Positions 7,488 through 64,000 are shown, counted from the stretch's first letter. The stretch: DNA of 64,000 nt from Clostridia bacterium (GCA_900770385.1 CAAGKK010000037.1:6195-70194), one strand, 5' to 3'. A program made the numbers and translations. Notes: generated from the letters alone by a model not told the origin.

Positions 7488-7655
7488 TACATATCACTCC
7501 ATAATATATGTCCTTATAGCATAATATGTCGAAAAAGGTTATTTGGTGAATTGACTTATACAAAGCTAATCAAAAATTATTAGTAATAGGAATTTTTTTG
7601 GATTTTATTAATATAATGAAGTATGTATTTATGAGAAAATAAGGAGGTAATTTTA

Positions 7656-46391: not shown

Positions 46392-46949
46392 ATGTATAAT
46401 AGTTGGGAAGAATTAGAAGAAAGCATAAGAAATTGTAACAAATGTAAATTATGCAAAAACAGGCATAATATTGTGTTAGGAGAAGGAAACAAAAATGCAG
46501 AAATAATGTTTATAGGAGAAGGACCAGGGGCAGATGAAGATATTCAAGGATTTCCGTTTGTTGGAAAAGCAGGACAACTAATGAATAAAGCATTCGAAGC
46601 ACTAGAAATAAAAAGAGAAAAAGTGTACATAACTAATATAGTAAAATGCAGACCTCCTCAAAATAGAGTGCCAAACAAAGAAGAAGCAACAGCTTGTATG
46701 GATTATTTAAGAAGCCAAGTAATGTTAGTAAAACCAAAAATAATAGTATTATTAGGAAGTACAGCCCTAAAAAGTATATTGGGTGAAGAGTATGGAATTA
46801 CTAAAACAAGAGGAATTTGGATAGAAAAGAAAGGTATTTTATATATGCCAACATTCCACCCAGCAGCATTATTAAGAGATGATACTAAAAAGATAGATTT
46901 CTGGAGAGATTTAAAATTAGTAAAAGAAAAATATGGAGAATTGAAATGA
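46392..46949 (+). CDS. Uracil-DNA glycosylase, family 4 (Fe-S)
   Basis: CNKCKLC..., GEGPGADED, GFPFVGKAGQLM and HPAALLR. Confidence 0.85.
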   Translation: MYNSWEELEESIRNCNKCKLCKNRHNIVLGEGNKNAEIMFIGEGPGADEDIQGFPFVGKAGQLMNKAFEALEIKREKVYITNIVKCRPPQNRVPNKEEATACMDYLRSQVMLVKPKIIVLLGSTALKSILGEEYGITKTRGIWIEKKGILYMPTFHPAALLRDDTKKIDFWRDLKLVKEKYGELK

Positions 46950-48193
46950 AATATGATGTAACAGAAATAATTAGAGATGCTAGTTATTGTTTAAACTGCA
47001 AAAACAAACCATGTAAATTTGGATGTCCATTAGGAAATAATATACCAGATTTTATAAAATACATAAAAGAGCAAAAAAATAGTGAAGCATTTGAAGTGCT
47101 TTCTGAAACTACTATATTTGAGCCGATTTGTGGAAGAATATGTCCACAGAAAAAACAATGTGAAGGAAGTTGTGTAAGAGGAATAAAAGGCCAAAGTGTA
47201 AAAATAGGAAGGTTAGAAAAATTTGTAGGAGACTATGCATTAGAAAATAAAATAAAACAAAAAGTTATGCCGGCAATTGGAAAGAAAATAGCAGTAATTG
47301 GGTCTGGACCAGCAGGACTAGCAGTTGCAAATTATTTATCAACAAAAGGATATTTAGTAACAATTTATGAAAAACATTCAAAACTAGGTGGTTTATTAAG
47401 ATATGGAATACCAGAATTTAGATTATCCAAAAAATTATTAGATAGTTGGCTAGAAAATTATGTGTTGAATAAAAATATAGAAGTAAAAACAAATACTAAG
47501 CTTGGAAGAGATATAACTCTTGAACAACTAAAAGAAAAATACGAAAAAATAATCTTATCATTTGGAGCAAATGTATCAAATAAAATGAATATACCAGGAA
47601 AAGAACTTGAATTTGTATTGGGAGGAAATGAACTTTTAGAATATAGAAAAATGCCTGATTTTAAAGATAAAAAAGTAGTAGTAATAGGCGGTGGTAATGT
47701 AGCAATTGATTCTGCAAGAACAATAAAAAAGCTAGGTGCCAAAAGCGTAAATATTATTTACAGAAGGTCAGAAACAGAAATGCCAGCTGAGAAAAAGGAA
47801 ATTGAAGAAGCAAAAAAAGAAAAAATAGAATTTACATTTCAAACAAATATATTAAAAATAAGTACAGGTGACTTAATAAATAAAGTAGAGTGTATAAAGA
47901 CAAAGTTAGTACCAAGCAAAACAGAAGATAGAAAATATCCTGTAAATATAGAAAATAGTAATTATACAATAGATACAAATTATGTTATAATGGCTATTGG
48001 CTCTAAAGCAGATAAGAAAACTATAAATGAATTAAATCTAGAAACTACAAGTTTGGGGTATATAAAAGTAGATGAAAATTACAAAACCACAGATAATAAG
48101 ATTTATGCAATAGGGGATTTAATAGGCAACAAACAAACAGTTGCATGGGCAGCCAAAAGTGGATTTGAATGTGCAAAAAGAATTTGTAAATAA
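46946..48193 (+). CDS. GltD-like NAD(P)H-dependent Fe-S flavoprotein oxidoreductase (glutamate synthase small subunit family)
   Basis: N-terminal Cys clusters. VIGSGPAGLA and VIGGGNVAIDSAR dinucleotide folds. Confidence 0.75.
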   Translation: MKYDVTEIIRDASYCLNCKNKPCKFGCPLGNNIPDFIKYIKEQKNSEAFEVLSETTIFEPICGRICPQKKQCEGSCVRGIKGQSVKIGRLEKFVGDYALENKIKQKVMPAIGKKIAVIGSGPAGLAVANYLSTKGYLVTIYEKHSKLGGLLRYGIPEFRLSKKLLDSWLENYVLNKNIEVKTNTKLGRDITLEQLKEKYEKIILSFGANVSNKMNIPGKELEFVLGGNELLEYRKMPDFKDKKVVVIGGGNVAIDSARTIKKLGAKSVNIIYRRSETEMPAEKKEIEEAKKEKIEFTFQTNILKISTGDLINKVECIKTKLVPSKTEDRKYPVNIENSNYTIDTNYVIMAIGSKADKKTINELNLETTSLGYIKVDENYKTTDNKIYAIGDLIGNKQTVAWAAKSGFECAKRICK

Positions 48194-48194
48194 C

Positions 48195-48229
48195 AAAAAC
48201 ATATTATCATTTAAGATAATATGTTTTTT
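48195..48229. terminator. Bidirectional terminator
   Basis: aaaaacatattatc-attta-gataatatgtttttt. Confidence 0.7.
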
Positions 48230-48263
48230 CATTTTATAATAGAAAATTATAATAAATTGTTTT

Positions 48264-48295
48264 ATGTAAGGGAGTACGCATCTGTACGCCCAATA
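48264..48295 (+). repeat. GC-rich hairpin element, copy 2
   Basis: atgtaagggagtacgcatctgtacgcccaata. It aligns with copy 1 and carries a compensatory stem change. Confidence 0.6.
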
Positions 48296-48298
48296 TTC

Positions 48299-49402
48299 TT
48301 ACCTCATATTAATATCATTATAATTGTAATTATTATTATAATTTAATTTAAGTAAAGTTTTAATTTTTCTAATAATTAATTGAAATAAAGTTTCTTTCTT
48401 TATAGGAACAAGTGCAAGTGGAGTATTAGGTACATTATTATATTTATTCTCAAGTTCAGCCATTTTATTTATATAATAATCATTGAAAAAAGTATAATCA
48501 TCTGTAACTCCAATGAAATTTCTATATGTATACAAAGCATTTCTGAAATTTTCCATGCTTCTTGAAGAGTATAAAGAATTAAACAAATTATCAAAAAAAC
48601 TAGTAAAAATTCTATTTTGAGTAAGCAAAAATCCTCTTCTTATATTTTCTTTAATTTGATTTGATTTTTTCATTAATCTTGCTATTTCAGAAGTAACTAT
48701 TTCACTTGATTGAATCTTTTCTAATGTAGCATGTAATTTATCTTCTAAATACATAATTGTATTTATATTATTTTTTATAATTTCGAAATCTTCTTCACTA
48801 GTTAATGTTATGAATTTATTTTTAAAATTATCGTTTCCATATAATGTGCTATTGTAAAGAACATATTCACCAGTAATATAAGCCATTTGCCTAACTAAAT
48901 TGCATTCCAAAGTATAATAATCAGGACTGTTAGATGGAAGTTCAATATCAAAATATTTTACTGTATCAAACTTAGATTTAGTGCATTTCATTGCCATTAA
49001 CTGGACAGCAGCTTCATTAAGAGCCATACCAGAAAGTTTAATATCAGAAAAGTCGCAAAGACCTAACTTAATTAATTTATTTCTAGAATTTACTTCAGCT
49101 TGAAGATAATGTATACATTCGTGAATAGTAACTGCATCAAGATTATCTAAATTTGTAGAACTACTAAAATAAATAGAAGAATTTTTGTAATAATATTTAG
49201 CAGCTACGCCATTTGGAATTTCAGCAATGTACATATTCAATCTAGAAAGTTTCATAAATAATTCATGATAATCTATGTCTTGTTCTGGAAAAGTATCAAC
49301 TAATTTTTGAGCAAGGTTAGTTGCAATTGAATTAACTTTTAAAGTATTTAATTTTTTTATTACTTTAATTCCTTCTTTGCGAAGTTTAGCTTCTGTATTC
49401 AC
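48299..49402 (-). CDS. Hypothetical protein with an HExxH motif (possible metallopeptidase)
   Basis: TIHECIHYLQ. No signal peptide. 367 aa. Confidence 0.4.
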   Translation of the reverse strand: MNTEAKLRKEGIKVIKKLNTLKVNSIATNLAQKLVDTFPEQDIDYHELFMKLSRLNMYIAEIPNGVAAKYYYKNSSIYFSSSTNLDNLDAVTIHECIHYLQAEVNSRNKLIKLGLCDFSDIKLSGMALNEAAVQLMAMKCTKSKFDTVKYFDIELPSNSPDYYTLECNLVRQMAYITGEYVLYNSTLYGNDNFKNKFITLTSEEDFEIIKNNINTIMYLEDKLHATLEKIQSSEIVTSEIARLMKKSNQIKENIRRGFLLTQNRIFTSFFDNLFNSLYSSRSMENFRNALYTYRNFIGVTDDYTFFNDYYINKMAELENKYNNVPNTPLALVPIKKETLFQLIIRKIKTLLKLNYNNNYNYNDINMR

Positions 49403-49537
49403 TAATAATTTATCCTTTCAATAATATACAAATATTATATAATATAATTCTACAAAAATACAATAAAAAAATGAAAAAATATATTAAATTTATGTTACAA
49501 TTAATGATATAATGTATATAAATATAGGAGAATAAAA

Positions 49538-50455
49538 ATGAATAATAAATTGCCAGATTTTTTATTAAATAAATTAAATAATCAGTATGGAGAAGATATA
49601 ACAAATAAAATAATAAATGGTTATTGCAAAAAAAAGGTAACAATTAGAATAAATACATTAAAAACAAGCAAAGAAGAAGTGTGCAATATTTTAGAAAAAA
49701 ATAATATACAATATAAAGAAGTTACAAGGAATAACATAGCTTTAATAATAGAAAATGCAAATGAAGAAACATTAAGCAAATTAGAAATATATGAAAAAGG
49801 GTATATATATTTACAAAGTTTATCTTCAATGCTTCCTCCTATTATTTTGCAACCGCAAGAAAGCGAAGATATATTAGATATGACAGCAGCTCCAGGAAGT
49901 AAAACAACACAAATAGCAGCAATCACAAAAAATAGAGCAAACATAACAGCATATGAGATGAATAAAATAAGAGCAGATAGATTAAAATATAATTTACAAA
50001 AACAAGGTGCAAACAGTGTTATTGTTATTAATGAAGATAGTAGAAAAATGAGCGACTATTTTGCTTTTGATAGAATTTTATTAGATGCCCCATGTAGTGG
50101 AAGTGGTACAGTAAATTTACAAAATGAGAAAACATATAAAAACATAACAAAAGAGTTAATACAAAAAAACAGAAAAAGCCAACTTGCACTATTAAAAAAA
50201 GCATTAAAAATACTAAAGCCTGGTCATGAAATGGTATACTCAACTTGTTCTATATTAAGAGAAGAAAATGAAGATATAATTAATCAGGTAATAAATGACC
50301 AAGATATAGAAATTATACCAATTAATATAAATGAGGATATACCAAAACTTCCTTGCAGAATAAAAGAAGCAATTTGCATAGCACCAAATGAATATTATGA
50401 AGGATTTTTTGTTGCAAAATTAAAGAAGAAAAATAGAAAAGAAAATGGATTTTAA
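49538..50455 (+). CDS. RsmB/NOL1/NOP2/Sun-family RNA m5C methyltransferase
   Basis: DMTAAPGSKTTQIA, DRILLDAPCSGSG and VYSTCS. Confidence 0.85.
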   Translation: MNNKLPDFLLNKLNNQYGEDITNKIINGYCKKKVTIRINTLKTSKEEVCNILEKNNIQYKEVTRNNIALIIENANEETLSKLEIYEKGYIYLQSLSSMLPPIILQPQESEDILDMTAAPGSKTTQIAAITKNRANITAYEMNKIRADRLKYNLQKQGANSVIVINEDSRKMSDYFAFDRILLDAPCSGSGTVNLQNEKTYKNITKELIQKNRKSQLALLKKALKILKPGHEMVYSTCSILREENEDIINQVINDQDIEIIPININEDIPKLPCRIKEAICIAPNEYYEGFFVAKLKKKNRKENGF

Positions 50456-50466
50456 TCCACTTTCTT

Positions 50467-52854
50467 TTATTTTATAACAATATTGTAAATTTTATTTTTT
50501 ACATAAATCTCTTTTACAATAGATTTACCATCAAGATAACTCTTTACAGCTTCATGAGCTTTTCCTTTTATGATTTCTTCATCAGTATCATAAGGTATTT
50601 TTAAAGTAGCTCTAAGCTTACCATTTACTTGTATTGGTAAATTATATTCATCTTCTTTACATTTATCTTCATCAAATGTAGGCCATACTTCATATGATAT
50701 TGTATTATTGTGACCTAGAATATTCCATATTTCTTCGGTAATATGTGGTGCTACTGGATTTAATAATTTTAAAAAGCCCTCTGCATATTCTTTAGGTAAT
50801 ATTTCTTCTTTATTAGCTGTATTTATAAATATCATCATTTGGCTTATTGCAGTATTAAAGTTCATAGATTCATAATCATTTGTTACTTTTTTTACTGTAA
50901 AGTTATATATTTTTTCTAAGTTTTTATTCTCAATTTCTTGAATTTTATTAGACTCTACAAATAATCTCCAAACTCTATCTAAGAAATTTTTAGAACCTGA
51001 AATTCCATGTGGATCCCAAGGCTTAGCGGCATCTATTGGTCCCATAAACATTTCATAAACTCTTAAGCTATCAGTGCCATATTGTCTAACCATGTCATCT
51101 GGGTTAACAACATTACCTTTTGATTTAGACATTTTTTCTCCATTTGAACCTAAAATCATACCTTGATGACGAAGTTTTGCAAATGGTTCTTTTACAGGTA
51201 CTATGCCTTTATTATATAGATAGTTATTCCAGAATCTCGAATATAATAAATGTCCTACAGCATGTTCTGGTCCACCAACATATAAATCAACAGGAAGCCA
51301 ATGCTTTAATAGTTCTTTGTTTGCAATTTCATTATCATTATTTGGATCAATATATCGTAGAAAATACCAACTAGAAGCTGCACTACCAGGCATTGTACTT
51401 GTTTCTCTTTTTCCTGCTTGGCCATTTACTTCAACATTAACCCAATCAGTTGCCTTTTCAAGTGGTGAGGCCCCGGATTTTGAAGGAGCATAATCTTCAA
51501 GAGAAGGTAAAATTAAAGGTAAATCCTTATCATCTAAAACAATCATATCATCTCCAATATGAATAATTGGAATAGGTTCACCCCAATAACGCTGCCTTGC
51601 AAAAATCCATTCTCTTAATTTATAATTTACTTTTTTCTCTCCAATTTCATTTTCCTCAAGCCATGAAATAATCTTATTAATAGCATCTTCTTTATTTAAT
51701 CCATTTAAGAAAGCCGAATTAATATGTAATCCGTCACCGGTAAAAGCTTCTTTTGATACATCTCCACCATCTAGAACAGGGATAATATCTAACCCAAATT
51801 TTTTAGCAAAAGCATAATCTCTTTCATCATGTGCAGGAACAGCCATAATAGCTCCAGTTCCATAAGAAGCTAAAACATAGTCTGAAATCCATATTGGAAT
51901 TTCTTTTCCGTTTACAGGGTTAATTGCATATGCACCTGTGAATACACCAGTTTTCTCTTTATTTAATTCTGTTCTTTCTAAGTCAGATTTTGAACTACAA
52001 ACTTTCTTATATGACTCAACAGCATCTTTTTGTTCTGTAGTTGTAATAATATTTATGAACTCATGCTCTGGAGCTAATACACAATATGTTGCTCCAAATA
52101 AAGTATCTGCTCTTGTTGTGAATACTGTAAATTCTAAATCATGATTTGCAACTTTAAATTTTACATGAGCACCAACAGATTTGCCAATCCAATTTCTTTG
52201 AATTTCTTTTGTAGATTCAGGCCAATCTATGTCATCTAGTCCAGCAAGTAATGTTTCTGCATATTTAGGAATGTCTAGTACCCATTGTTTCATATTTTTA
52301 CGAACAACAGGGAAGCCACCTCTTTCAGATTTTCCATCTATTATTTCATCATTGGCAAGAACAGTTCCTAATTCTTCACACCAGTTAACAGGCATATCCA
52401 CAAATTTTGCAAGACCATCATTGTATAATTGTTTAAAAATCCATTGTGTCCATTTGTAGTATGAAGGATCACAAGTTGAAATTTCTCTATCCCAATCAAA
52501 AGAAAAACCAAGCATTTTTAATTGCCTTTTAAAAGTTGAAATATTTTGTTTAGTAAATATTTCAGGATGATTACCAGTCTTAATTGCGTATTGCTCTGCT
52601 GGAAGACCAAAAGAATCCCAACCCATTGGATGTAAAACATTATATCCATTCATTCTCTTAAATCTAGACATTACATCTGTTGCAGTATAGCCTTCTGGAT
52701 GGCCAACATGCAAACCCTGACCAGATGGATAAGGAAACATATCTAAAGCATAATATTTAGGTTTAGAAAAATCCCATACATCAGTTTTAAATGTTTTGTT
52801 ATCGTCCCAATATTTTTGCCATTTCTTTTCTATATTTTGAAAATCATATGTCAT
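50467..52854 (-). CDS. leuS: Leucine--tRNA ligase
   Basis: [12 protein letters not shown] (HIGH) and KMSKSKGN (KMSKS). 795 aa. Confidence 0.95.
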
Positions 52855-52954
52855 TTATTTATCACTTTCTTTCCATTTAAGAATATTAATATACGATATT
52901 ATACAATACTTCAGTAACAAAATAAAGAGTAAACTGAATAAAAAATAAAAAAAT

Positions 52955-52995
52955 GAGGGGAACCAAAAAGGGTCAGACCACTTTTGGTTCCCCTC
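52955..52995. repeat. REP-like palindrome, left flank of the Y1 transposase gene
   Basis: gaggggaaccaaaa-agggtcagaccac-ttttggttcccctc. Confidence 0.8.
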
Positions 52996-53076
52996 TTGAA
53001 AAAAAAAAATCAATATAATATAATAACGATCGGGAGCAAAATTATAAAAATCATATTTAAGGAGAATGTAATAATT

Positions 53077-53868
53077 ATGCCCCGTTCACTTAGAATAAAA
53101 AGTTTAACTAATATTTATCATATAATGATAAGAGGTGTTAATAAAGAAATCATTTTTTATGACACAGCAGATAAGAAAAAATTCTTACAAATACTAAAGT
53201 ACTATTTAAGCAAATACAGTGTAGAAATAATAGCTTATTGTTTAATGAATAATCATGTGCATTTTTTATTAAAATCAAAAGAGGATTTTAGCAAATTTAT
53301 GCAATGTATACAGACAGTATATGCTACTTATTTCAATAAAAAGTATAAAAGAATAGGTCATTTATTTCAAGATAGATTTAAAAGTATTCCGGTTGAAGAA
53401 GAAAGATATTTATTAGAATGTGTACGATATATACACCAAAATCCTGTAAAGGCCAATATTTCAACAATAGAAAAATATAAATGGAGTAGCTATAATGAAT
53501 ATATTAAAAATTCAAAATTAGTTAATACTGATTTGATTCTAAAGCTATTTTCTACTGAAAAAGAAACAGCAATTAATAATTACAAAAAATATATGAATAT
53601 AATTAGCAATGAATCAGATATTAGAAATGTGGGAATAGAAGAGAAAATAAGTGATAATGATGCTATAAAATTTATAGAGGATTTCTTTAAGGTAAAAATA
53701 GGTGCCATAAGAAAAATGAAAATAATAGAGAGAAATATATTATTAACTAAAATAGTATCATTAGAAGTTATGAATATATTACAAATTTCGAGAATTACAG
53801 GAATAAATAGAAATATTTTAAGAAAAATAGATAAAAGAAGAAAGGCAGGGGGACCAAAAGTGGTCTGA
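53077..53868 (+). CDS. IS200-like/REP-associated tyrosine (Y1, HUH) transposase (RAYT-like) with a C-terminal HTH
   Basis: IYHIMIRGVNKEIIF, HUH motif NNHVHFLL, GHLFQDRFKS and RYIHQNPVKA. The start was moved to the ATG at 53077 behind RBS aaggag. Confidence 0.8.
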   Translation: MPRSLRIKSLTNIYHIMIRGVNKEIIFYDTADKKKFLQILKYYLSKYSVEIIAYCLMNNHVHFLLKSKEDFSKFMQCIQTVYATYFNKKYKRIGHLFQDRFKSIPVEEERYLLECVRYIHQNPVKANISTIEKYKWSSYNEYIKNSKLVNTDLILKLFSTEKETAINNYKKYMNIISNESDIRNVGIEEKISDNDAIKFIEDFFKVKIGAIRKMKIIERNILLTKIVSLEVMNILQISRITGINRNILRKIDKRRKAGGPKVV

Positions 53869-53885
53869 CCCTTTTTGGTTCCCCC
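53848..53885. repeat. REP-like palindrome, right flank (reverse complement of the left copy)
   Basis: gggggaccaaaa-gtggtctgaccct-ttttggttccccc. The loop is the exact reverse complement of the left copy's loop. Confidence 0.8.
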
Positions 53886-53902
53886 TAACAGAGGAAGGAT
53901 AT

Positions 53903-55831
53903 ATGCCTAAAAAACTATTGATAACTGAAAAGCCATCTGTTGCAATGGAATTTTCAAAAGCTTTAAAACAAAATACAGTTAGAAAAAATGGATATTTAGA
54001 GTCAAAAGATTGGATTATAACTTGGTGTGTAGGACATTTAGTTACAATGTCTTATCCAGAAGCATATGATGAAAAATTAAAGTTTTGGAGATTAGATACA
54101 CTACCATTTATACCAGACGAGTATAAATATGAAATAATATCAGCAGTTAAAAACCAATTCGATATAGTACAAAGCTTATTACAAAGAGAAGATGTAGAAG
54201 AAATATATAATGCTGGAGATTCAGGAAGAGAAGGAGAATATATACAAAGGTTAGTGTTTATGATGGCACATCCAAATCCAAAAGCTAAAATGAAAAGAGT
54301 TTGGATAGATTCTCAAACAGAAGAAGAAATTTTAAGAGGAATAAAAGAAGCAAAAGATATGTCAGAATATGATAGCTTATCAGATTCTGCATATTTGCGT
54401 GCAAAAGAGGATTATCTAATAGGAATTAATTTTTCAAGATTATTATCAATAATATATGGAAGAAGATTAGCAAAAGAAATAAATGAAGATAAAGTTTCTA
54501 TTTCAGTAGGAAGAGTTATGACATGTGTTTTAGGAATGGTTGTAATAAGAGAAAGAGAAATTAGAAACTTTGTAAAAACTAAGTATTATAAATTAATAGG
54601 AAAATTTGGAAATAACGAATCAGAATTTGATGCAGAATGGAAGGTAAATGAAAATTCTGTAATGTACAATAATCCTAAATTATATAATGAGTCAGGCTTT
54701 AAAAAGGTAGAAGATTTAAAGAACTTTATAAATTATCTGAAAGATAAAGAAGCAATAATCACAGAAGTAAAAAAACAAAAACAAAAAGAGAATCCACCAC
54801 TTTTGTTTAATCTAGCTGAAATTCAAAATGAATGCACTAAACAATTCAAAATAAAACCAGATGAAACACTAGAAATAATACAAAACTTATATGAAAAGAA
54901 ACTAGTAACATATCCAAGAACAGATGCTAGAGTTTTATCTACTGCAGTAGCCAAAGAGATAACTAAAAACTTAAATGGAATATCAAGAGGTCTTAAAGAT
55001 GAAGAAATAAAAGAATATATAAATAAAATGGTAGAAGAAAAATATTCAACAAATTTAATAAAAACTAAATATGTAAATGACTCAAAAATAACAGACCATT
55101 ACGCAATAATTCCAACAGGACAAGGATATGAAAATTATGAAACATTACCAGAACTACATAAAAGAGTATATAAAATAATAGTAAAAAGATTTTTAGCAAT
55201 TTTTTATCCACCAGCAGAATACAATAAAATAAATGTAACAATTGATATAGAAAAAGAAAAATTTTATGCTAATGGAAAGGTTTGTATAAAAAGAGGATAT
55301 TTAGACATATTAAAACCAAAAAACGAAACAGAAGAATCTGATACATCAAAAGATAATAATAGTAATTTAGATATACTTTCAACATTAAAAAAGGAACAGA
55401 AAGTTCAAATAAATAATTTTGAAAATAAGGAAGCAGAAACCACACCACCTAATAGATACAATTCTGGTTCTATGATTCTAGCAATGGAAAATGCAGGAAA
55501 ATTAATAGAAGACGAAGAACTAAGAGAACAAATAAAAGGAGCAGGTATTGGTACAAGCGCAACAAGGGCGGAAATTATAAAAAAGTTAGAAAGAATAAAA
55601 TACATACAAATAAATAATAAAACTCAAATAATTACACCAACCGGAAAAGGTGAAAAAATATTTGATATAGTAAATATGTCTATGCCAGATATGTTAAATC
55701 CAAAATTAACAGCAAGTTGGGAAAAAGGATTAGATATGGTTGCAAAAAAAGAAATTGAGCCAGATATATTTATGAATAAACTAAAAAAATATATTCATTC
55801 AAAAGTTGATAAATTGGTAGTTAAAATGTAA
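53903..55831 (+). CDS. topB: DNA topoisomerase III (type IA)
   Basis: Toprim [10 protein letters not shown] ... GDSGREGE. Catalytic region [13 protein letters not shown]. No zinc-ribbon tail. Confidence 0.85.
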
Positions 55832-55883
55832 GCATATATTTCACCTAATTATTATAAAAAAATATAATATATTAGGTGATTTT

Positions 55884-56429
55884 ATGTTTAAAGCAATAAA
55901 AGATATATATTTAGATGCAAAAAATATATGCCAAAAGGATCCAGCAAGTAAAAATATTTTATATGTGATTTTTCTTTATCCAGGTTTTCATGCTATTTTA
56001 TTTCATAGAATAGCGCACTTTTTAAATAATTTAAATTTTAAATTTATAGCAAGGCTAATATCGCAAATAGCGAGGTTTTTTACAGGAATAGAAATACATC
56101 CTGGTGCTAAAATTGGAAAAAGATTATTTATAGATCATGGAATGGGAATTGTAATAGGCGAAACAGCTACAATTGGAAATAATTGTACAATATACCATGG
56201 AGTTACATTAGGAGGAACAGGAAAAGATAAATATAAAAGACATCCTGATTTAGGAAATAATGTAATAGTAGGGTGTGGAGCTAAAATTTTGGGACCAATA
56301 AAAATTGGAAACAATGTGAAAATAGGAGCAAATGCAGTAGTTTTAAAAGAAGTACAGGATAATTCTACAATAGTAGGAGTACCAGGAATAACAAAAAACA
56401 CAAATGAAGATGGAATCTTTTTAGAATAA
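55884..56429 (+). CDS. cysE: Serine O-acetyltransferase
   Basis: [41 protein letters not shown] hexapeptide core. Confidence 0.85.
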
Positions 56430-56489
56430 GTAATAGAAAAAGCAGATAATTAGTTGATAATTATCTGCTTTAATAATACAAATAATTTA

Positions 56490-56551
56490 GAATTCACCTT
56501 TTATGTAAAAATGACATAATATATAGCAAGTTACATAAGGAAGGTGAATTT
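56490..56551 (+). promoter_or_regulatory. Long imperfect hairpin that pairs the murA Shine-Dalgarno region
   Basis: The left arm gaattcacctt-ttatgtaa pairs with ttacataa-gg-aaggtgaatt(t). The right arm contains the RBS aaggaaggtga, 5-14 nt before the ATG at 56555. Confidence 0.45.
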
Positions 56552-56554
56552 TTT

Positions 56555-56895
56555 ATGAAAAGATATATTATTGAAGGTGGAAAAAAACTTGAGGGAACTA
56601 CATATGTTTCAGGATCTAAAAATGCTTCATTACCTATAATTGCAGCAACACTTTTGAATAAAGGAATAAACAAATTGTATAATGTACCTAATATTCATGA
56701 TACAAAGATGATGTTTAAAATATTAGAAGAATTAGGTTGTAAAATAAAAAAGGTAAATGGTAAAACAATAATTGATTCAAGAAATATAAATAAGTATGAA
56801 ATACCAGATAATTTAATGAGCAAAATGAGATCATCCGTGATTATAGCAGGAGCTCTGTTATCAAGAAGTAAAAAAGTAACATTTACCTACCCAGG
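56555..56895 (+). pseudogene. murA: murA 5' segment (codons 1-113 plus the first two bases of Gly114), interrupted
   Basis: MKRYIIEGGKKLEGTTYVSGSKNASLPIIAATLL...KVTFTYPG, then a non-MurA Asp and a TGA at 56900-56902. Confidence 0.9.
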
Positions 56896-57061
56896 GGATT
56901 GAGATGTTTGGTGGATACATCGGATAAACATAAGATAAATGAATAGATTTGGGAGGTCGATTTTGTTTAAAGTTAGTTGATAATTATCAGTTTTTTGTAA
57001 TATTAACTAATTCTTTAGTAATAAGTACAAACAACATAACAATATAATTTAGAAAAAGGAA

Positions 57062-57235
57062 ATGGAGGTGGATATTCTGGAAGAATCAAATATTACCAAG
57101 AAAACGAAACAAAAGAAAGATAAATTACCATTTACAGTATTCATTTGTCCAAAATCAAATACTGGTGATACTGAGGATTACAAACAGGTATTCACCGACA
57201 TAATTTCCGATAGAATAAAGGAAAAATATGAATAA
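57062..57235 (+). CDS. Small hypothetical protein (57 aa) inside the element
   Basis: ATG preceded by aaaaaggaa. MEVDILEESNITKKTKQKKDKLPFTVFICPKSNTGDTEDYKQVFTDIISDRIKEKYE. Below the ORF-track cutoff. Confidence 0.35.
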   Translation: MEVDILEESNITKKTKQKKDKLPFTVFICPKSNTGDTEDYKQVFTDIISDRIKEKYE

Positions 57236-57580
57236 AAAACAAAACAAAATTTTGTAAAGCTGTTGAAAAAATAATTAAAGATATGATATAAAATATAGTA
57301 AGTTACAATAAGAATTTAGAAAAGTGAACTTGCAAGAATTTGTTGCAAGTTCGAAACGAAAGAAAAAGGTAAATTAAATATATTATAAATTTTAAAAATG
57401 TAATAAATAAAGCAAAGGAAGCTTGTAAGGGTAGTAATATTGCAGAAGAGGAACGCTTTGCAAACGTCGGGAGGGTGTTAAAAGTAGGTAATAATGCAGA
57501 AATTAAAGCAAAGGCTTAGAAAAGAAGGAAATGAGTCGGTGACAAATTGTCACCAACTAAAATAAAAAATATAAGAATTA

Positions 57581-58150
57581 CTACTTTATAATAAACTTGC
57601 CATTTTTATACAATAAAGTATCTCCATTTTTGGCGTTTTTAGGAACTTCATCTATGGGGATATTTTCAGATTTATTAGTATTTAAATTTTTGCAAACAGC
57701 AAAATCTATACCAATATCAGAAATTTGATAATATTCTGGTAAAACATTTATCTTTGAAGAAAGGGTTGCATAACTGCATTCACTTAAAAGTTTATCAATA
57801 TCATTTGCATTTGCTGAAATTCCTGTAGTATCTACACGAAAATCCTTTGAAGAAACTTTTTTTATAGCTTCGCCAACTTCTGGAGTACTATCGTTTAAAT
57901 AAGATTTAGGAATATTGTATATAGTTTTAGAAGAGTAATCAAAGCAAATAGCATAATCATCTTCAAATTTTGCAAAATGCAGATTTGTATTATTAGGTAA
58001 GTTTTCTAGTATTTTATCATTTGTTTGAGATTCTAAATAGTCTTGTAATTCATGAATAAAGTCATCAACAAAAGTTCCTTTAATATTATCATGAATTTTG
58101 TTATCTAATAAATTTAAATTATTTAGTGAAAAGTTTAAAAAATCGTTCAA
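57581..58150 (-). CDS. Hypothetical protein; the C-terminal part is DUF3006-like
   Basis: 189-aa ORF with RBS aggagg. The C-terminal ...IPIDEVPKNAKNGDTLLYKNGKFII resembles the small beta-rich DUF3006 pattern (weak call). Confidence 0.45.
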   Translation of the reverse strand: MNDFLNFSLNNLNLLDNKIHDNIKGTFVDDFIHELQDYLESQTNDKILENLPNNTNLHFAKFEDDYAICFDYSSKTIYNIPKSYLNDSTPEVGEAIKKVSSKDFRVDTTGISANANDIDKLLSECSYATLSSKINVLPEYYQISDIGIDFAVCKNLNTNKSENIPIDEVPKNAKNGDTLLYKNGKFIIK

Positions 58151-58190
58151 AAAAATTCCTCCTTATATTATAATATGTTAGGTGATAGAA

Positions 58191-59045
58191 ATGAAAAAAA
58201 TAAAAAATGCAATAATAATTATAGTAATGCTAATATGTGTAAGTAATGTGAGTTTGGCACATAGTGGTAATATTACAGGTTGGAAAGATAAAGATTCAGA
58301 ATATATAACTGAATATAATGGAAAATATTATGGCTATCACAAAGAAAATGGGGTAGTACATTATCATCAGGTAAAATGGGATAAAGAAAACAAAAAATGG
58401 GTAATTGTTACGCCTGCTGTATACTATGATGAAAATTTTAATAAAATAGAAAACGATTATAATAAAGACACAAATAAAATTGAAGTAGAATTAGTAAAAA
58501 CTGTAGATGGGGATACTGCAAAGTTCAAAATGGATAGGGAACAAGTAACAGTTAGATTTTTAGGAATAAACACAAAAGAAACTGTTCATCCAGAAATTGG
58601 AGAAGAAGAGTGGGGAAAAGAGGCAAGTGATTTCACCAAAGGAAAACTTGAAAATGCTACAAAAATTGAATTAGAGTTTGATAAAGTTGCTGATAAAAAA
58701 GATAAATATGATAGATATTTGGCATGGATATGGGTAGATGATGAGTTGTTGCAAAATTTATTAGTACAAAATGGATTGGCAGAAACTTATATGTTGCAGA
58801 ATAACTATAAATATGCTGGAATGTTACAAGAAAGTGAAGAACTAGCCAAAGAAAGCAAACTTGGAATTTGGAGTGAAGACACGAATGGTACACAAGATGA
58901 CAAAAACAAAACAATACAAGGCAATGATACAGAAGTAAATGCTCAAACAGATGACAATAATTTACTATATATAATTATTGGAGCAATAATATTAATTGCT
59001 ATAAGCATATTTAATATAGCACATAATAATAAAAAAGAAAAGTAG
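58191..59045 (+). CDS. Thermonuclease (staphylococcal nuclease/SNase family) with a signal peptide and a C-terminal TM anchor
   Basis: VKTVDGDTAKF...VRFLGINTKET...GKEASDFTK...DKYDRYLAWIW...NGLAE...AKESKLGIWS covers the SNase catalytic core. N-terminal hydrophobic leader. C-terminal LLYIIIGAIILIAISIF. Confidence 0.8.
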   Translation: MKKIKNAIIIIVMLICVSNVSLAHSGNITGWKDKDSEYITEYNGKYYGYHKENGVVHYHQVKWDKENKKWVIVTPAVYYDENFNKIENDYNKDTNKIEVELVKTVDGDTAKFKMDREQVTVRFLGINTKETVHPEIGEEEWGKEASDFTKGKLENATKIELEFDKVADKKDKYDRYLAWIWVDDELLQNLLVQNGLAETYMLQNNYKYAGMLQESEELAKESKLGIWSEDTNGTQDDKNKTIQGNDTEVNAQTDDNNLLYIIIGAIILIAISIFNIAHNNKKEK

Positions 59046-59052
59046 ATAACTA

Positions 59053-59100
59053 AAAAAGTTCTAAAATTTTGAGGAGATAACTTGAAGTTTTAGAACTTTT
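59053..59100 (+). terminator. Terminator after the nuclease gene
   Basis: aaagttctaaaa ... ttttagaacttt followed by a T-run. Confidence 0.55.
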
Positions 59101-59170
59101 TATATAATAGCAACAATAAAATGTAATATACATTAAATGTTATTGATACATAATGAAGCGGAGGTATACT

Positions 59171-60814
59171 ATGAAAAAATCTAACGAAGCAAAAAAGGTA
59201 GTAATCTATTGCAGAGAGAGTAGAGATGACTATGGAGAAAATTATGAAAGAATAGAAACGCAAAGAGACTTGCTAGTTAAATACTGTAAAAGTCATGGAT
59301 ATACTAATATTGTAGATATTATAATGGATGATGACAAAAGTGGAACAGATTTTAGTAGATTTGATGATATTAGAAAAAGAGCAAAGAATAAAGAAATAGA
59401 CATAATTGTTTTTAAAAATTCTGCAAGACTTGGAAGAAACCAAAAAGAAGCATTGAATTTTGTAGAATACTTAGAAGAACAAGGGGTAGAGATAATATTT
59501 GAAGATGAGCAATACAATGAGGAAATGTTTGGGTTATACGCATGGTTTAATGAAAGAAGAGCAAGAGATGATAGTAAAAATATAAGAAGAAATTTAAGAC
59601 ATAAAATTGAAGAAGGCGATTTATTAGTAAAAGCAATTTATGGATATAACAAAGATGGAAAAAGCCTTGTAATTAATGAAGAAACTGCCACCACGGTGCA
59701 AGAAATATTTGAATTATACTCTAAAAGTTGGGGATATCAAAAAATTGCAACTTACTTAAATAAAAAAGGAATACCAACTCCATCACAATCAAGAGGATTT
59801 TCAAATGCAAAACAAACAGCAAATTGGAAAGCGCAGCATATTGTAAGAATATTAGAGGATAGAAGATATACAGGAGCCTATGTTGGAGGACATACAGAAA
59901 AATTAAGCTTTAAATCTAAAAAAACAAGAGTAAAGCCAGAAGAAGAATGGACTATAATAGAAAATCATCATGAACCTATTATTGATAAAGAACTATTTGA
60001 AAAAGTTCAAAAAATTAGAAAGAAAAGAAAAAAAGAAAGTGATAAAATAAATAATGGTTTTAAATTTGTAGATACAGACAATAACTTATATTCAGGACTT
60101 TTATATTGCGGAAGATGTGGAATTCCAATGTATAAAAGAAAGGGAAATACTGGAACAAGAAAAAGACCAGATAGTTATTTATGCAAAAAGTATAGTAATG
60201 AAGGTGCAATAAAAGATATAAGACCAAATTATGGGTGTAAACCACACAGGATAAGAATAGAATATTTAGACGAAATTGTAAATGCATATATAGATAATTT
60301 AGTAAGTAATCCTGAATTTAAAAATTTTGTTATGGACAATGTAAAAGCAATTTCTACAAATAAAGCAACCTTAGAAAAAGAGTTAAACAAATCTAAACAA
60401 ACATTGGAAAAGCTAGAAAAACAATTTAAACAAGTATATGAAGATAAGCTAAATGATTTAATTCCAGAATTTATATATAAAGATAAAAAACAGGAATTAG
60501 AAAAGAAGATACAATATGAAAAAGAAAAATTGCAAGAAGCGGAAGGTAAATTCAATACACTAAACAAATTAGAAGATAAAGAAGATTTAATATTTAAAGC
60601 AATAGATGATATAAAGAAAAATGGATTAACAAAAGAAGAATTATCAAGACTATTTGATAAAATAGTAGTATTTGATAAAAATGAAATAACAAAAGAAGAA
60701 AAAGACTTGTATACCCTAAATGATATGATGTATAATGAATTATACGAAAACGGAGGGTTGCTATTTCATTTGAAATTTATGTACCCACAAACTATCACAA
60801 ACAGGAGGGTGTGA
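59171..60814 (+). CDS. Large serine recombinase of the murA element
   Basis: VVIYCRESRDD catalytic-Ser N-domain. Recombinase domain. Zn-ribbon CGRCGIPMY...YLCKKY...GCKPH. Coiled coil. The stop codon (60812-60814) lies 9 nt beyond the crossover, inside murA DNA. Confidence 0.9.
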   Translation: MKKSNEAKKVVIYCRESRDDYGENYERIETQRDLLVKYCKSHGYTNIVDIIMDDDKSGTDFSRFDDIRKRAKNKEIDIIVFKNSARLGRNQKEALNFVEYLEEQGVEIIFEDEQYNEEMFGLYAWFNERRARDDSKNIRRNLRHKIEEGDLLVKAIYGYNKDGKSLVINEETATTVQEIFELYSKSWGYQKIATYLNKKGIPTPSQSRGFSNAKQTANWKAQHIVRILEDRRYTGAYVGGHTEKLSFKSKKTRVKPEEEWTIIENHHEPIIDKELFEKVQKIRKKRKKESDKINNGFKFVDTDNNLYSGLLYCGRCGIPMYKRKGNTGTRKRPDSYLCKKYSNEGAIKDIRPNYGCKPHRIRIEYLDEIVNAYIDNLVSNPEFKNFVMDNVKAISTNKATLEKELNKSKQTLEKLEKQFKQVYEDKLNDLIPEFIYKDKKQELEKKIQYEKEKLQEAEGKFNTLNKLEDKEDLIFKAIDDIKKNGLTKEELSRLFDKIVVFDKNEITKEEKDLYTLNDMMYNELYENGGLLFHLKFMYPQTITNRRV

Positions 60815-61718
60815 TATTGGTTCTAGACCAATAGATTTACATCTTAAATCTTTTGAAAAACTAGGAGTAAATGTTAAAGAAGAGTTTGGAGAATTAATAT
60901 GCACAGCAGATGAAATAGTGGGAAATGATATTCATTTAGACTTTCCAAGTGTAGGTGCAACTGAAAATATAATGCTTGCTAGTGTACTAGCTAAAGGGGT
61001 AACTAAAATAAACAATGCAGCAATGGAACCAGAGATTATTGATTTGCAAAATGCATTAAATTCTATGGGAGCAAAAATAACAGGTGCAGGAACTAATAAT
61101 ATTATTATAAAAGGTGTAGAAAAATTAAAAGATTTGAGTTATAATATAATTCCAGATAGAATAGAAGCGGGAACTTTGCTATGTGCAGCAGCAATAACAG
61201 GAGGAAATATAAAATTACAAAAAGTTATTCCAGAACATATTGAAACATTAATCAACAAGCTAGAGGAAATGGGATGTCAAATAACTAAAAGTAAAAATGA
61301 AATTGTATTAAAAAGTCCTAAGAAACTAAGAGCAGTAGACATTAAAACACTGCCATACCCGGGATTCCCTACAGATTTGCAATCAATATTAGGAGTAACC
61401 TTAACAATAGCTAAAGGAACCTCAATTATAATAGAAAATATATTTGAAAATAGATATAAATATCTAAATGAACTTATAAAAATGGGAGCAAAAACCACAG
61501 TAGAAGGTAGAACAGCAGTAATAAAAGGAGTAAAAAGGTTAAACAAAGCAACTGTAAGAGCTACAGATTTACGAGGCGGAGCAGCTTTAATATTAGCTGG
61601 TTTAAATGCAAAAGGAAGGACAACAGTAGAAAATATAGAATATGTATTAAGAGGTTATGAAAATTTAGATAAAAAACTAACATCTTTAGGAGCAAATATA
61701 AGATTAGAAGAAATATAA
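60806..61718 (+). pseudogene. murA: murA 3' segment (from the last base of the Gly114 codon, then Gly115-Cys116, to the stop)
   Basis: (G)GCDIGSRPIDLHLKSFEKLGVNV...FPSVGATENIMLASVLAKG...FPGFPTDLQ...FENRYKYLNEL..ATDLRGGAALILAGL...LRGYENLDKKLTSLGANI. Confidence 0.9.
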
Positions 61719-61749
61719 AATATATTTGATTCAGAAGGAGAAAAAATAT

Positions 61750-62742
61750 ATGCCAAGAGCAAGTAAAAAAAATATGAAAAAGAAAAAGAATGACAATAGC
61801 TATAGCTCTGAAAATGAAATAATTATAGGTGTTACAACTAAACCTAAAAATGTACGAGTAGAAAATAAAAAAACTACTCGTACCAATAATAACAAAAAAA
61901 ATAATATGTCAAAACCTAAAAAAAGGACAAGCAAAAGCAAAGGAGTTCCTAAAAAAAATAGCAAAATACAAAATGATAAAGATCAGAAAATAAAAAAGAT
62001 TAACAGAAAAAAAGGAATCGCAGGATTTATAGTATTATTTTTGTTACTTGTATCAGGGACAATTTATATGTTAACAACACCAATGTTTAATATTACTAAT
62101 ATAGAAATAAGTGGAAATGAAAAGAATTCTGTAGAAACATATATTAGTTTAACCAAGGTAGAACTTAATACTACAAATATATTTGCAATAACTAAAAATA
62201 GCATAACTAAGAATTTAAAAGAAAATTCATATGTAGAAAAAGTAACAATAAAAAGAAAACTACCAAGTACTCTACAAATTAATATAGAAGAAAGAAAAGT
62301 AGCTTATCAAGTTAAATACAACAATCAATATATATATTTAGACAAACAGGGATATATATTAGAAATAGCTGATGAAAAAGAAAACATTGTAAAAATAGAA
62401 GGACTAACTAATTTAGAGAATTCTATAGACAAATCAAATAGATTGGGCGATGAAGATTTAACAAAACTAAATACAATAATAAAAATTATGAATTATTGCC
62501 AATACAATAGTATAGATAACCAAATTACATCTATAAACTGTAAAGACACATCAAATTATATTTTAACCTTAGAAAAAGAAAAGAAAATTGTGTATTTGGG
62601 AGATGCTACAAATTTAAGTGAAAGAATATTATGGTTGAAAACTTTATTAGAAAAAGAAAAAGGTAATAAAGGAGAGATATTTATTAATGGGGATTTAAGT
62701 AATAGAAAGGTATATTTTAAACCAGATAATAAAAAGGAGTAA
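61750..62742 (+). CDS. divIB: Cell division protein DivIB/FtsQ (basic N-terminus, TM, POTRA)
   Basis: TM followed by the POTRA-like ITNIEISGNEKNSVETY. Position after murA. The start was moved to the ATG behind RBS agaaggag. Confidence 0.75.
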   Translation: MPRASKKNMKKKKNDNSYSSENEIIIGVTTKPKNVRVENKKTTRTNNNKKNNMSKPKKRTSKSKGVPKKNSKIQNDKDQKIKKINRKKGIAGFIVLFLLLVSGTIYMLTTPMFNITNIEISGNEKNSVETYISLTKVELNTTNIFAITKNSITKNLKENSYVEKVTIKRKLPSTLQINIEERKVAYQVKYNNQYIYLDKQGYILEIADEKENIVKIEGLTNLENSIDKSNRLGDEDLTKLNTIIKIMNYCQYNSIDNQITSINCKDTSNYILTLEKEKKIVYLGDATNLSERILWLKTLLEKEKGNKGEIFINGDLSNRKVYFKPDNKKE

Positions 62743-62746
62743 TATT

Positions 62747-63475
62747 ATGAATAAAAAAGTTGTTTCAATTACTTTAGGAGTAATGTGTTTAATTCTAACA
62801 ATAGCAATAGTTGTACAATACAAAACAATTCAAAATGCTAATCATATAATAAATATTAGTGGAGCAAATAGCGAATTAAAAGCAGAAGTTTTAAACTGGA
62901 AAGAAAAATATGATGATGCATATTCTGATTTAGAAAAAGCAGAAAAGAAATTGGAAACACAAAGACAGCAAGCCACACAAAGAGGAGACAAGTCCTCAGA
63001 ATCTGAAAAAGAATTAAAAATAGCAAATTCAATTATAGGAACAATAGATGTAGCAGGTAAAGGAATTGTTGTAACTGTAGCAGATAATAAAAATGTTACA
63101 AATGATTCAATTAGTATATTAGACAATATTAGCAACTATTTAATTCATGATACAGATTTATTAACACTAGTAAATGAATTAAAAAATGCTGGAGCTGAAG
63201 CAATATCTATAAATGATGAAAGAATAACCAATTTAACTTCAATTACATGTGATGGAAATGTAATATTAATAAATGGAAACAAAATAAGTTCACCATTTAA
63301 GATAAAAGCTATAGGATCACAAGAAGCATTACTTGGAGCAATACAAAGACCAGGAGGATTTTTGGCACAGTTAAAAAAATTCGGATTGGTTTCAAGTGTA
63401 ACAAAACAAAACAAAATAACAATATATAAATATAATGGAATTATGGATTATAAATATATGAGAAACCAAAAATAA
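62747..63475 (+). CDS. DUF881 protein (YlxW/YlxX-like, division/sporulation associated)
   Basis: TM + coiled coil + GKGIVVTVAD...LVNELKNAGAEAISINDERI. Confidence 0.7.
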   Translation: MNKKVVSITLGVMCLILTIAIVVQYKTIQNANHIINISGANSELKAEVLNWKEKYDDAYSDLEKAEKKLETQRQQATQRGDKSSESEKELKIANSIIGTIDVAGKGIVVTVADNKNVTNDSISILDNISNYLIHDTDLLTLVNELKNAGAEAISINDERITNLTSITCDGNVILINGNKISSPFKIKAIGSQEALLGAIQRPGGFLAQLKKFGLVSSVTKQNKITIYKYNGIMDYKYMRNQK

Positions 63476-63498
63476 GTATTTCTTAGAGAGGTAAAAAT

Positions 63499-64000
63499 AT
63501 GAAAAAAGAAAAGATAGTAATTGTAATTACAATAGGAATTATGAGTTTATTATTAGCTTGTGTTATGTTTATGCAGTTCAAAGTGGTAAATGAAATAGAT
63601 GTATCAGAATTAGAATCATTAAGAGAAGATGAACTACAAAAGCTTGCATCAGAATGGAAAGAAAAATATGAAGAAACTAATACTAAGCTTCAAGATACTC
63701 AAACTAAAATAGCAGAATACAAAGAAAAATCAGAAAACAGTGATGAAACAGAAAAGTTAGTTGAGGAAGAATTAAAAGAAGCAAACTTAATATTAGGAAA
63801 AACAGATGTAATAGGAAATGGTATACAAGTTACACTTAAAGATACAGAAGATAAAGTATATGATGCGGAAGATTTACTAACATTAGTTAATGAACTTAGA
63901 GCAGCAGGAGCAGAAGCTATAAGTATAAATGGAGAAAGAGTTATTAATTTAACAGATATTGTAGATATATCAAGTAGATTTGTTTTAGTAAATAGCAATA
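63499..64000 (+). CDS. Second DUF881 protein, truncated by the window end
   Basis: MKKEKIVIVITIGIMSLLLA... GNGIQVTLKD...LVNELRAAGAEAISINGERV. It is open to the window edge and so is absent from the ORF track. Confidence 0.7.
   Translation, partial: MKKEKIVIVITIGIMSLLLACVMFMQFKVVNEIDVSELESLREDELQKLASEWKEKYEETNTKLQDTQTKIAEYKEKSENSDETEKLVEEELKEANLILGKTDVIGNGIQVTLKDTEDKVYDAEDLLTLVNELRAAGAEAISINGERVINLTDIVDISSRFVLVNSN

Follow-up and report, generated by a model that had tools for sequence, protein, structure and literature searches.

The DNA analyzed here is a 64,000-nucleotide stretch from a Clostridia bacterium (GCA_900770385.1, CAAGKK010000037.1:6195-70194; hereafter the window), in which the gene murA is split by a 3,910-bp insert carrying a large serine recombinase gene (56555-61718). 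MurA, the target of fosfomycin, carries out the first committed step in making peptidoglycan. The murA 5′ fragment (56555..56895, plus strand, as are all features below unless stated) consists of codons 1-113 and the first two bases of the Gly114 codon, while the 3′ fragment (60806..61718) begins with the third base of that codon and proceeds through Gly115 and Cys116 to the stop codon. We delimited both fragments using the list of open reading frames (ORFs) and tblastn searches with the joined MurA protein. ORF 56555-56902 encodes MurA residues 1-114 (...KVTFTYPG), followed by Asp and a TGA stop at 56900-56902, just as an earlier note made from the sequence alone had read it. From 60804, the murA frame reads GGCDIGSRPIDLH... 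and ends at 61718. The note had placed the split at the catalytic-cysteine codon. The break falls in the same loop but interrupts the Gly114 codon, two codons 5′ of the catalytic Cys116 (Cys115 in E. coli MurA).

Joining 56555-56895 to 60806-61718 in silico yielded 1,254 nt that remain in frame and encode 417 amino acids. The joined protein matched MurA models from end to end, scoring 535 bits against NF006873 (positions 1-414 of the 419 in the model) and 522 bits against TIGR01072, and matched Pfam EPSP_synthase over residues 7-405. The fragments are thus contiguous halves of one MurA, and connecting 56895 to 60806, as the note had proposed, restores the full MurA loop. The closest solved structures were MurA enzymes of Gram-positive bacteria, several of them deposited as "transferase 1", and the interrupted gene was closest to the MurA1/MurAA type.

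To find an uninterrupted allele, we turned to related genomes. Two loci from the same species as the window (L166 and L167; 99.1-99.6% nucleotide identity over 13.5 kb) contain an uninterrupted murA, which encodes a 417-aa MurA (P0241) with 100% identity to the protein joined in silico. They align to window positions 46557-56895 and 60802-64000, such that the window is collinear with the intact murA of L166 up to 56895 and again from 60802. The sole overlap between the two alignments is the 4-bp CAGG that the note had pointed out at both junctions and that is present at 56892-56895 and 60802-60805. Three further loci with ~97.7% identity to the window (L168-L170) are likewise uninterrupted, while the element is present in L135 and L151, which are 98-99% identical to the window. 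Since the conspecific L166/L167 allele is exactly the predicted joint, the split is neither chance nor an assembly artifact. The interruption of murA is genuine and exact, and strains of the species differ in whether they have it.

While the element is integrated, this copy of murA should be null, since the truncated product ends at 115 aa and the 3′ part lacks a promoter or start codon before Cys116; its first own start codon is the GTG at 60918. We also considered a functional two-piece MurA, which is unlikely as there is no start codon before Cys116 and the break lies inside a domain.

We set the limits of the integrated element (56896..60805; 3,910 bp) by blastn against a related element (L088) and the empty site in L166. 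As stated in the note, it ends in a large serine recombinase, or integrase, gene (59171..60814). The mechanical ORF starts at 59153. The ATG at 59171 is probably the true start, since it follows a ribosome-binding site (GGAGG, 59160-59164) and yields a protein of 547 aa, the homologues being 547-548 aa. The protein contains three Pfam domains above cut-offs, PF00239 Resolvase (residues 16-156), PF07508 Recombinase (176-292), and PF13408 Zn_ribbon_recom (312-380), and an active-site motif, VVIYCRESRDD, that is conserved among relatives. Its homologues form more than 100 clusters with 73-95% identity, all from gut metagenomes or metagenome-assembled genomes (MAGs), and its dN/dS is ~0.1 (Nei-Gojobori, 44 loci). 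Integrases in the phage and plasmid collections that we searched were less than 30% identical to the window recombinase, the nearest named integrase in the plasmid collection being TndX of Tn5397 (~28% identity). The best match to a solved structure was SPbeta YokA/SprA (E 3e-10, 43 bits), and TnpX matched over the catalytic domain only (27 bits). By these comparisons, the integrase lineage appears new relative to the phage and plasmid collections searched.

The recombinase gene belongs to a family of elements that share one insertion site. We collected 85 recombinase loci, of which 72 extend past the recombinase to the junction and 21 include the attL end. In all 72, a close homologue of the integrase (78-99% identity) lies directly against murA at the same position, and the murA 3′ fragment starts at the same base after the same arm. 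In the window, attR (60779..60830) is composed of the P arm ATGTACCCACAAACTATCACAAACA (60779-60803), GG at 60804-60805, and the host B′ arm from 60806. Alignment of the 21 left junctions defined attL (56870..56920), which is composed of the host B arm to 56893, GG at 56894-56895, and the P′ arm GGATTGAGATGTTTGGTGGATACAT (56896-56920). The attR consensus is ATGTAYCCACAAACTATCACAAACA-GG-NGGNTGYGA... (72 loci), and the attL consensus is ...TAYCCN-GG-GGATTGCGATATTTGGTGGATACAT... (21 loci), with a P′ arm common to all 21. Immediately 5′ of the GG, the base resembles the host in attL and the element in attR, and immediately 3′ of it this pattern is reversed. Since the origin of the flanking bases switches exactly there, we place the exchange at the GG dinucleotide, which forms positions 1-2 of the invariant Gly114 codon.

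From these junctions, we reconstructed an attP of 25 + GG + 25 bp (52 bp) whose arms are imperfect inverted copies, each with an outer ATGTAYCCAC and an inner TATCRC motif. The inner motif is repeated at equal distance in the right half of attB. Within murA, conservation of attB exceeds 90% at non-wobble positions across 80 genomes with an empty site. The predicted junctions are ...ACCTACCCAGGAGGGTGTGATATTGG... for attB and ...CTATCACAAACAGGGGATTGMGATRTTTGGTGG... for attP. Recombination is conservative, as empty and occupied alleles differ by the element only (window versus L166; L109 versus L029). As judged from the alignments, this layout is that of textbook serine-integrase sites.

Two ORFs run across the junctions. 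The stop codon of the recombinase lies at 60812-60814, so that the ORF extends 9 nt beyond the junction and its last three sense codons and stop are in murA sequence. Because the ORF crosses attR, the C-terminal tail of the recombinase would vary with the state of the element: the integrated form ends in ...TNRRV (547 aa), and an excised circle would read across attP to 561 aa (...TNRGLRCLVDTSDKHKINE). At the other end, the truncated MurA in most relatives (e.g., L135 7901-7960) ends in ...YPGDCDIWWIHRT.., which resembles the native ...YPGGCDIG..., an echo explained by the mimicry of attB by the attP arm. In the window, a TGC to TGA change places the stop directly after PGD.

We examined the region upstream of the recombinase gene (59053..59151) using an alignment of 26 members, a four-way alignment, and an inverted-repeat search. 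It contains a 17-nt palindrome common to all members, with arms AAAAAGTTCTAAAATTT (59053-59069) and AAgTTTTAGAACTTTTT (59085-59101). A -35 element (TTGAAG, 59082-59087) overlaps the palindrome and is followed by a -10 element (TATAAT, 59103-59108); a conserved box, ATGTTATTGATACAT (59137-59151), lies just before the ribosome-binding site. Across the 26 members, the family promoter is of the sigma-A type and near consensus (TTGAAa-17-TATAAT). A generic promoter scan was uninformative (28 found versus 31 expected), and Rfam gave no match in the window.

The elements of this family range from ~3.6 kb to more than 11.6 kb and vary in cargo. One of 10.4 kb (L109), in a host whose flanking DNA shares 99.5-99.7% identity with the empty locus L029 of Clostridium sp. 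CAG:567, encodes an HTH_36/DnaD_N protein that matches phage replication-initiator families (PHROG), a Mob_Pre relaxase, a DUF6076 protein, a small protein, a Bro-N protein, and the recombinase. Another (L081) encodes a PF03432 relaxase of the MobA type and a giant SNF2-type helicase. The Mob_Pre family was found in 11 of 28 elements. As larger members carry relaxase and replication genes, we classed the family as integrative mobilizable elements (IMEs). Separating the small gene from the recombinase is a variable slot, which contains Bro-N (PADLOC candidate PDC-S13), RhuM (PDC-S05), or, in the window, a secreted or anchored nuclease and a DUF3006 protein; from these domain matches, the slot often holds candidate anti-phage genes. 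In two loci (L148 9496-13674 and L137 3740-14157), the recombinase is not at the attR edge, with 2-2.5 kb of extra DNA between them, and in L148 the small conserved gene directly adjoins the recombinase gene.

To compare the histories of element and host, we calculated dS (Nei-Gojobori) for the recombinase and the adjacent murA 3′ fragment in 44 loci (946 pairs). The two were uncorrelated (Spearman 0.06), in contrast to the stable vertical inheritance that marks an intervening element. For L090/L091 compared with L141, murA dS was 1.64 and recombinase dS 0.027; for the window compared with L088, the values were 0.93 and 0.11. Conversely, hosts of the same species (murA dS <0.02) contained recombinases up to dS 0.85 apart, and the uncoupling was repeated in a separate host clade. 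Occupied and empty sites could be paired for L109, L103, L117, and L141 (with L029), L110 (with L012), L148 (with L059), and the window (with L166). Since recombinase and host dS are uncoupled and sites within a species may be occupied or empty, the family spreads horizontally, functional elements having been acquired again and again.

The explanation that we favor, with good confidence, is that the insert is a reduced IME whose recombinase uses a ~40-bp stretch of murA encoding the YPGGCDIG loop as its attachment site. For integration, the recombinase would pair the 52-bp attP with attB in murA, the site sequences being those of the natural junctions. Both sites would be cut at the GG and rejoined without duplication or loss to give attL and attR. 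Excision would rebuild murA exactly and, by analogy with all characterized serine integrases, would need a directionality factor, for which the candidate is a protein of 52-69 aa described below. Full-size relatives, with their relaxase and replication-initiator-like genes, would hitchhike from host to host on conjugative elements. The window copy would have lost this transfer module and kept the recombination module together with its nuclease and DUF3006 cargo.

Only two genes are universal among 28 clustered elements, the recombinase and a gene encoding a 52-69 aa protein. In the window, this small gene (57062..57235) encodes 57 aa, or 55 aa if translation starts at GTG 57068; a homologue is present at 28/28 loci. 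None of its 347 homologues is annotated, and we detected no Pfam, PHROG, NCBIfam, or PADLOC match. The C-terminal 36 residues (LPFAVFICPKSN..DYKQVFTDIISDRIKEKY) are almost invariant. At the codon level, 29 of 35 third positions vary compared to 13 of 35 second positions. Since third positions vary while second positions are mostly fixed, the gene encodes a genuine protein under strong purifying selection. Alignment of 22 members revealed a promoter-like block upstream of the gene (57014..57052; TTTAGTAATAAGtACAA ... AATATAAT), which contains TATAAT, ends in AATATAAT, and presumably acts as a promoter.

As the small protein is the only other gene product kept by every member, it is a candidate recombination directionality, or excision, factor, an assignment that we lean toward by a small margin. 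The directionality factors of serine integrases are small and mutually unrelated, without sequence conservation or synteny with the integrase (PMC12286644). GirX of the Bacillus cereus gin element, a 42-aa protein without a conserved motif, likewise first drew attention by its conservation across gin elements; deletion, complementation, and in vitro assays then confirmed its role (PMC5595907).

Besides attL, the small gene, the recombinase gene, and attR, the window element retains two cargo genes. One, on the minus strand (57581..58150), encodes a 189-aa protein with a C-terminal match to DUF3006 (Pfam PF11213, 2e-09) and also occurs in the L088, L092, L135, L137, and L153 elements. The other (58182..59045) encodes a 287-aa protein of the staphylococcal-nuclease fold (Pfam SNase, 1e-22; NCBIfam NucI-like) that matches the PADLOC SNc+LTD candidate model (6.5e-27) and has a signal-like segment at its N-terminus and a hydrophobic anchor at its C-terminus. 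The 10.3-kb L088 element encodes a recombinase 97-98% identical to that of the window. By blastn, the window element lacks equivalents of L088 1405-6935, a left-hand module, and 7580-8280, which contains the Bro-N gene. The window element is therefore a deletion derivative of an L088-type element. In the sibling element of L135, the 158 bp corresponding to window 57367-57524, between the small gene and the DUF3006 gene, are deleted. We also noted a 22-nt direct repeat (window 56450-56471 and 56973-56994; 91% identical), one copy of which lies in a terminator-like hairpin of the host upstream of murA and the other near the left end of the element. The 16-mer common to the copies, TTAGTTGATAATTATC, also occurs in the L092 element, which is in a different host.

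Comparison of the window copy with L135, which is in the same species and 99% identical overall, bears on whether this copy can still move. Relative to L135, the window copy has three substitutions in a 40-bp part of the attL P′ arm region; two of these replace CGATAT, invariant in the other 20 attL sites, with AGATGT; one P′ arm substitution also makes the early TGA. In addition, the promoter spacer in the window is 15 nt compared to 17 nt in relatives, due to a 2-bp TA deletion, and the small protein has Thr instead of Ala25, a position at least 90% conserved. Each change is minor on its own; taken together, these attL, promoter, and small-protein changes hint, tentatively, at a copy drifting toward immobility. 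The corresponding alternative to a reduced IME, that in this strain the element is an immobilized fossil and murA a disrupted pseudogene bound to decay, strikes us as possible but doubtful. Also in its favor is the absence, in the window and L135 alike, of the genes for relaxase and replication found in larger relatives. However, neither murA fragment contains a stop, the ORFs of the integrase and the small protein are intact, the effects of the att and promoter changes are inferred from conservation only, and L135, in the same species, retains the consensus motifs.

A less probable alternative to the reduced IME is a conditional switch, in which the element is excised in sporulation (in the mother cell), wall stress, or a phase of growth to rebuild murA, much as gin acts on gerE or the comK prophage in Listeria. 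Large serine recombinase elements that are excised to rebuild sporulation genes are known, among them skin in sigK and SPbeta in spsM, and the note had likened the insert to these. The insert is indeed self-contained, and taking it out leaves murA precisely in frame with the active-site loop re-formed. The integrase and small protein are retained and under selection even in mini-elements without transfer genes, and 57 of the 69 murA 3′ fragments in occupied loci are still open. The hosts also carry sporulation genes: spoVD- and spoVE-like genes lie in the window, and spoIIGA, sigE, and sigG follow ftsZ in the conspecific L166. Yet intact fragments are equally expected after recent insertion, and murA is, by family, a general peptidoglycan gene that is not specific to sporulation. 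Moreover, elements inherited through the germ line and excised in the mother cell should co-diverge with their hosts, whereas here dS is uncoupled, relaxases are present in the family, and occupied and empty alleles occur together within species. The conserved integrase promoter is of the sigma-A type, and no sigma-E, -K, -F, or -G motif was recognized on inspection of the two conserved upstream regions, a weak negative given that promoter consensus sequences are not defined for this lineage. We consider it improbable that, in this abundant lineage of spore-forming gut Clostridia, the family forms a reversible switch on a MurA1-type gene with the small protein driving excision in sporulation or envelope stress; the analogy with skin and SPbeta is not supported in these respects.

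A prophage remnant or phage satellite is very unlikely. Phage-associated domains do occur in part of the cargo (Bro-N and RhuM in relatives and the replication-initiator-like PHROG match). When eight proteins of L109 and two cargo proteins of the window were scanned against PHROG, however, the only matches were to a replication initiator and a Bro-N family, with none to capsid, terminase, tail, or lysis functions, the cargo of other elements having been scanned by Pfam only or not at all. In addition, no relative of the integrase was found in IMG/VR, the integrases of phage collections are distant, as described above, and the larger elements carry relaxases. An assembly or chimera artifact, in favor of which we found no point, is ruled out for practical purposes by the empty conspecific locus and by the presence of the same junctions in more than 70 independently assembled contigs from many studies, including L135, L151, and the 1.69-Mb contig CAXVQW010063528.1 of GCA_964261755.1.

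Several observations weigh against the explanation that we favor. We found no excised circle, recognizable by its attP junction, in any public contig, and mobility is inferred only from polymorphism and phylogenetic incongruence. Scanning ORFs and Pfam domains in 56896-60805 revealed neither a relaxase nor a replication gene; since these are absent, the label of mobilizable for the window copy rests on its relatives. The AlphaFold monomer of the small protein is a single helix of low confidence (pLDDT 62), too poor for a fold search. Finally, genes of the MurA1/MurAA type are essential in Bacillus subtilis and Listeria, and a search of 80 related genomes revealed no second murA closer than 10 kb to murA.

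Presumably, a second MurA paralogue sustains the host. Low-GC Gram-positive bacteria commonly carry two murA genes, which would explain tolerance of the disruption. Using tblastn, we detected no second murA in the 64-kb window, and none was found in the 85 recombinase loci. Among the murA 3′ fragments of occupied loci, 12 of 69 have early stops. We considered these stops as decay and thus as evidence that the gene is dispensable, a reading that we dropped: six of the fragments share a conserved extra C, two stop near where the gene should end (codons 289 and 291), and the remaining four are singletons from contigs with 1.5-7x coverage. There is thus no solid evidence of decay or of selection keeping the interrupted murA.

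Similar elements have been described in other bacteria. Like the murA family, gin, in gerE of B. cereus, is a small, non-phage element with a large serine recombinase, lies inside a coding sequence, and rebuilds the gene on removal (PMC5595907). It encodes the GirC integrase and the tiny GirX, and the conservation argument for GirX parallels ours for the 52-69 aa protein (PMC5595907). However, the target of gin is a regulator specific to sporulation, and its excision takes place at mid-sporulation (PMC5595907), whereas the murA family targets a general peptidoglycan enzyme, spreads horizontally, includes many relaxases, and has no sporulation promoter that we could see. In skin (SpoIVCA) in sigK, SPbeta (SprA/SprB) in spsM, and skinCd with CD1234 in Clostridioides difficile, a serine integrase likewise acts on att sites inside an ORF that is rebuilt in frame (PMC4191935, PMC5499854, PMC5025042). 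Unlike the murA family, these are prophages or their relics in mother-cell genes with a developmentally controlled directionality factor, and their integrases are distant from the one described here.

The streptococcal serine-recombinase IMEs also pair an integrase with a relaxase, lack a transfer apparatus, and insert in conserved protein-coding genes (PMC5357655). Their authors raise the possibility of excision when the target gene is needed (PMC5357655). They differ in hosts, targets, and integrase lineage, and murA is not among the reported targets (PMC5357655). Tn4451/Tn4453, which encode TnpX and the Mob_Pre-type relaxase TnpZ, and Tn5397, which encodes TndX, all from clostridia and enterococci, resemble L109 in the combination of a large serine recombinase and a Mob_Pre-family relaxase. 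These transposons move as excised circles. TnpX and TndX are not known to need a separate directionality factor and act on loosely defined GA-containing targets, while the murA family uses strictly one murA site (72/72 loci). Mechanistically, the family belongs with gin, skin, SPbeta, Tn4451/Tn5397, and the streptococcal IMEs as a serine-integrase element; it differs from them in integrase lineage, in its strict specificity for the murA site, in its candidate directionality factor, and in host range. The note was unaware of a described case in murA, and in the literature that we searched we also found no report of murA as an attachment site. The family is widespread in uncultured gut Clostridia and apparently undescribed.

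These findings show that, in natural populations of common uncultured gut Clostridia, the murA of the division cluster is often knocked out by a mobile element, raising the questions of how many MurA enzymes are needed and when. Since the crossover falls on two invariant bases of a conserved Gly codon, the landing site is kept across hosts with murA only ~60% identical. With attP and attB directly legible in dozens of junctions found in nature, and with a strong candidate for the excision factor, the family might provide an orthogonal set of integrase, att sites, and directionality factor for genome engineering. Were the switch to be true, a mobile element would control flux into peptidoglycan synthesis and, in a genome without a second murA, viability would hinge on the equilibrium between excision and integration.

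The surrounding genes are those of cell division and wall synthesis. A cluster at 19.9-29.2 kb of the window contains mraZ, rsmH, a spoVD-like penicillin-binding protein gene, murE, mraY, spoVE/ftsW, and murG. The split murA lies ~27 kb past this murG cluster and directly upstream of ftsQ and a DUF881 gene. Conspecific and related contigs continue with a second DUF881 gene, DUF1290, ftsA, ftsZ, spoIIGA, sigE, and sigG; as the last three follow in the conspecific L166, the host has genes for sporulation. Its nearest matches among genomes are gut MAGs of uncultured bacteria labeled "Clostridia bacterium" and assemblies labeled "Clostridium sp. CAG:". In the 80 best-matching species representatives, murA is intact in all, and the closest that we examined (L001-L006) have the same flanking gene order.

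The six murA 3′ fragments with an extra C belong to one clade (L101, L102, L105, L113, L114, and L118). The C (xxx CGG A) lies near murA codon 177, ~190 nt after the junction (e.g., L102 11833 and L113 2112), and causes a +1 shift. In these genes, dN/dS was 0.04-0.34 before the shift and 0.10-0.18 after it, with dS up to 1.1, so that both frames are open and under strong purifying selection. This pattern resembles programmed +1 frameshifting, conserved in the clade and taking place at a rare CGG codon, more than it does decay.

Two further differences in gene content were seen near murA. In L168 (5370-5900), L169, and L170, but not in the window or L166, an extra gene encoding a 176-aa Ogt/MGMT-like protein lies between a hexapeptide acetyltransferase gene and murA. 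The window contains an IS200-like Y1 transposase ORF (52984-53868; Pfam Y1_Tnp) between leuS and a topoisomerase gene; it is also present in the conspecific L166 and in L168, while the closest other species (L001 and L002) have ~60 bp instead.

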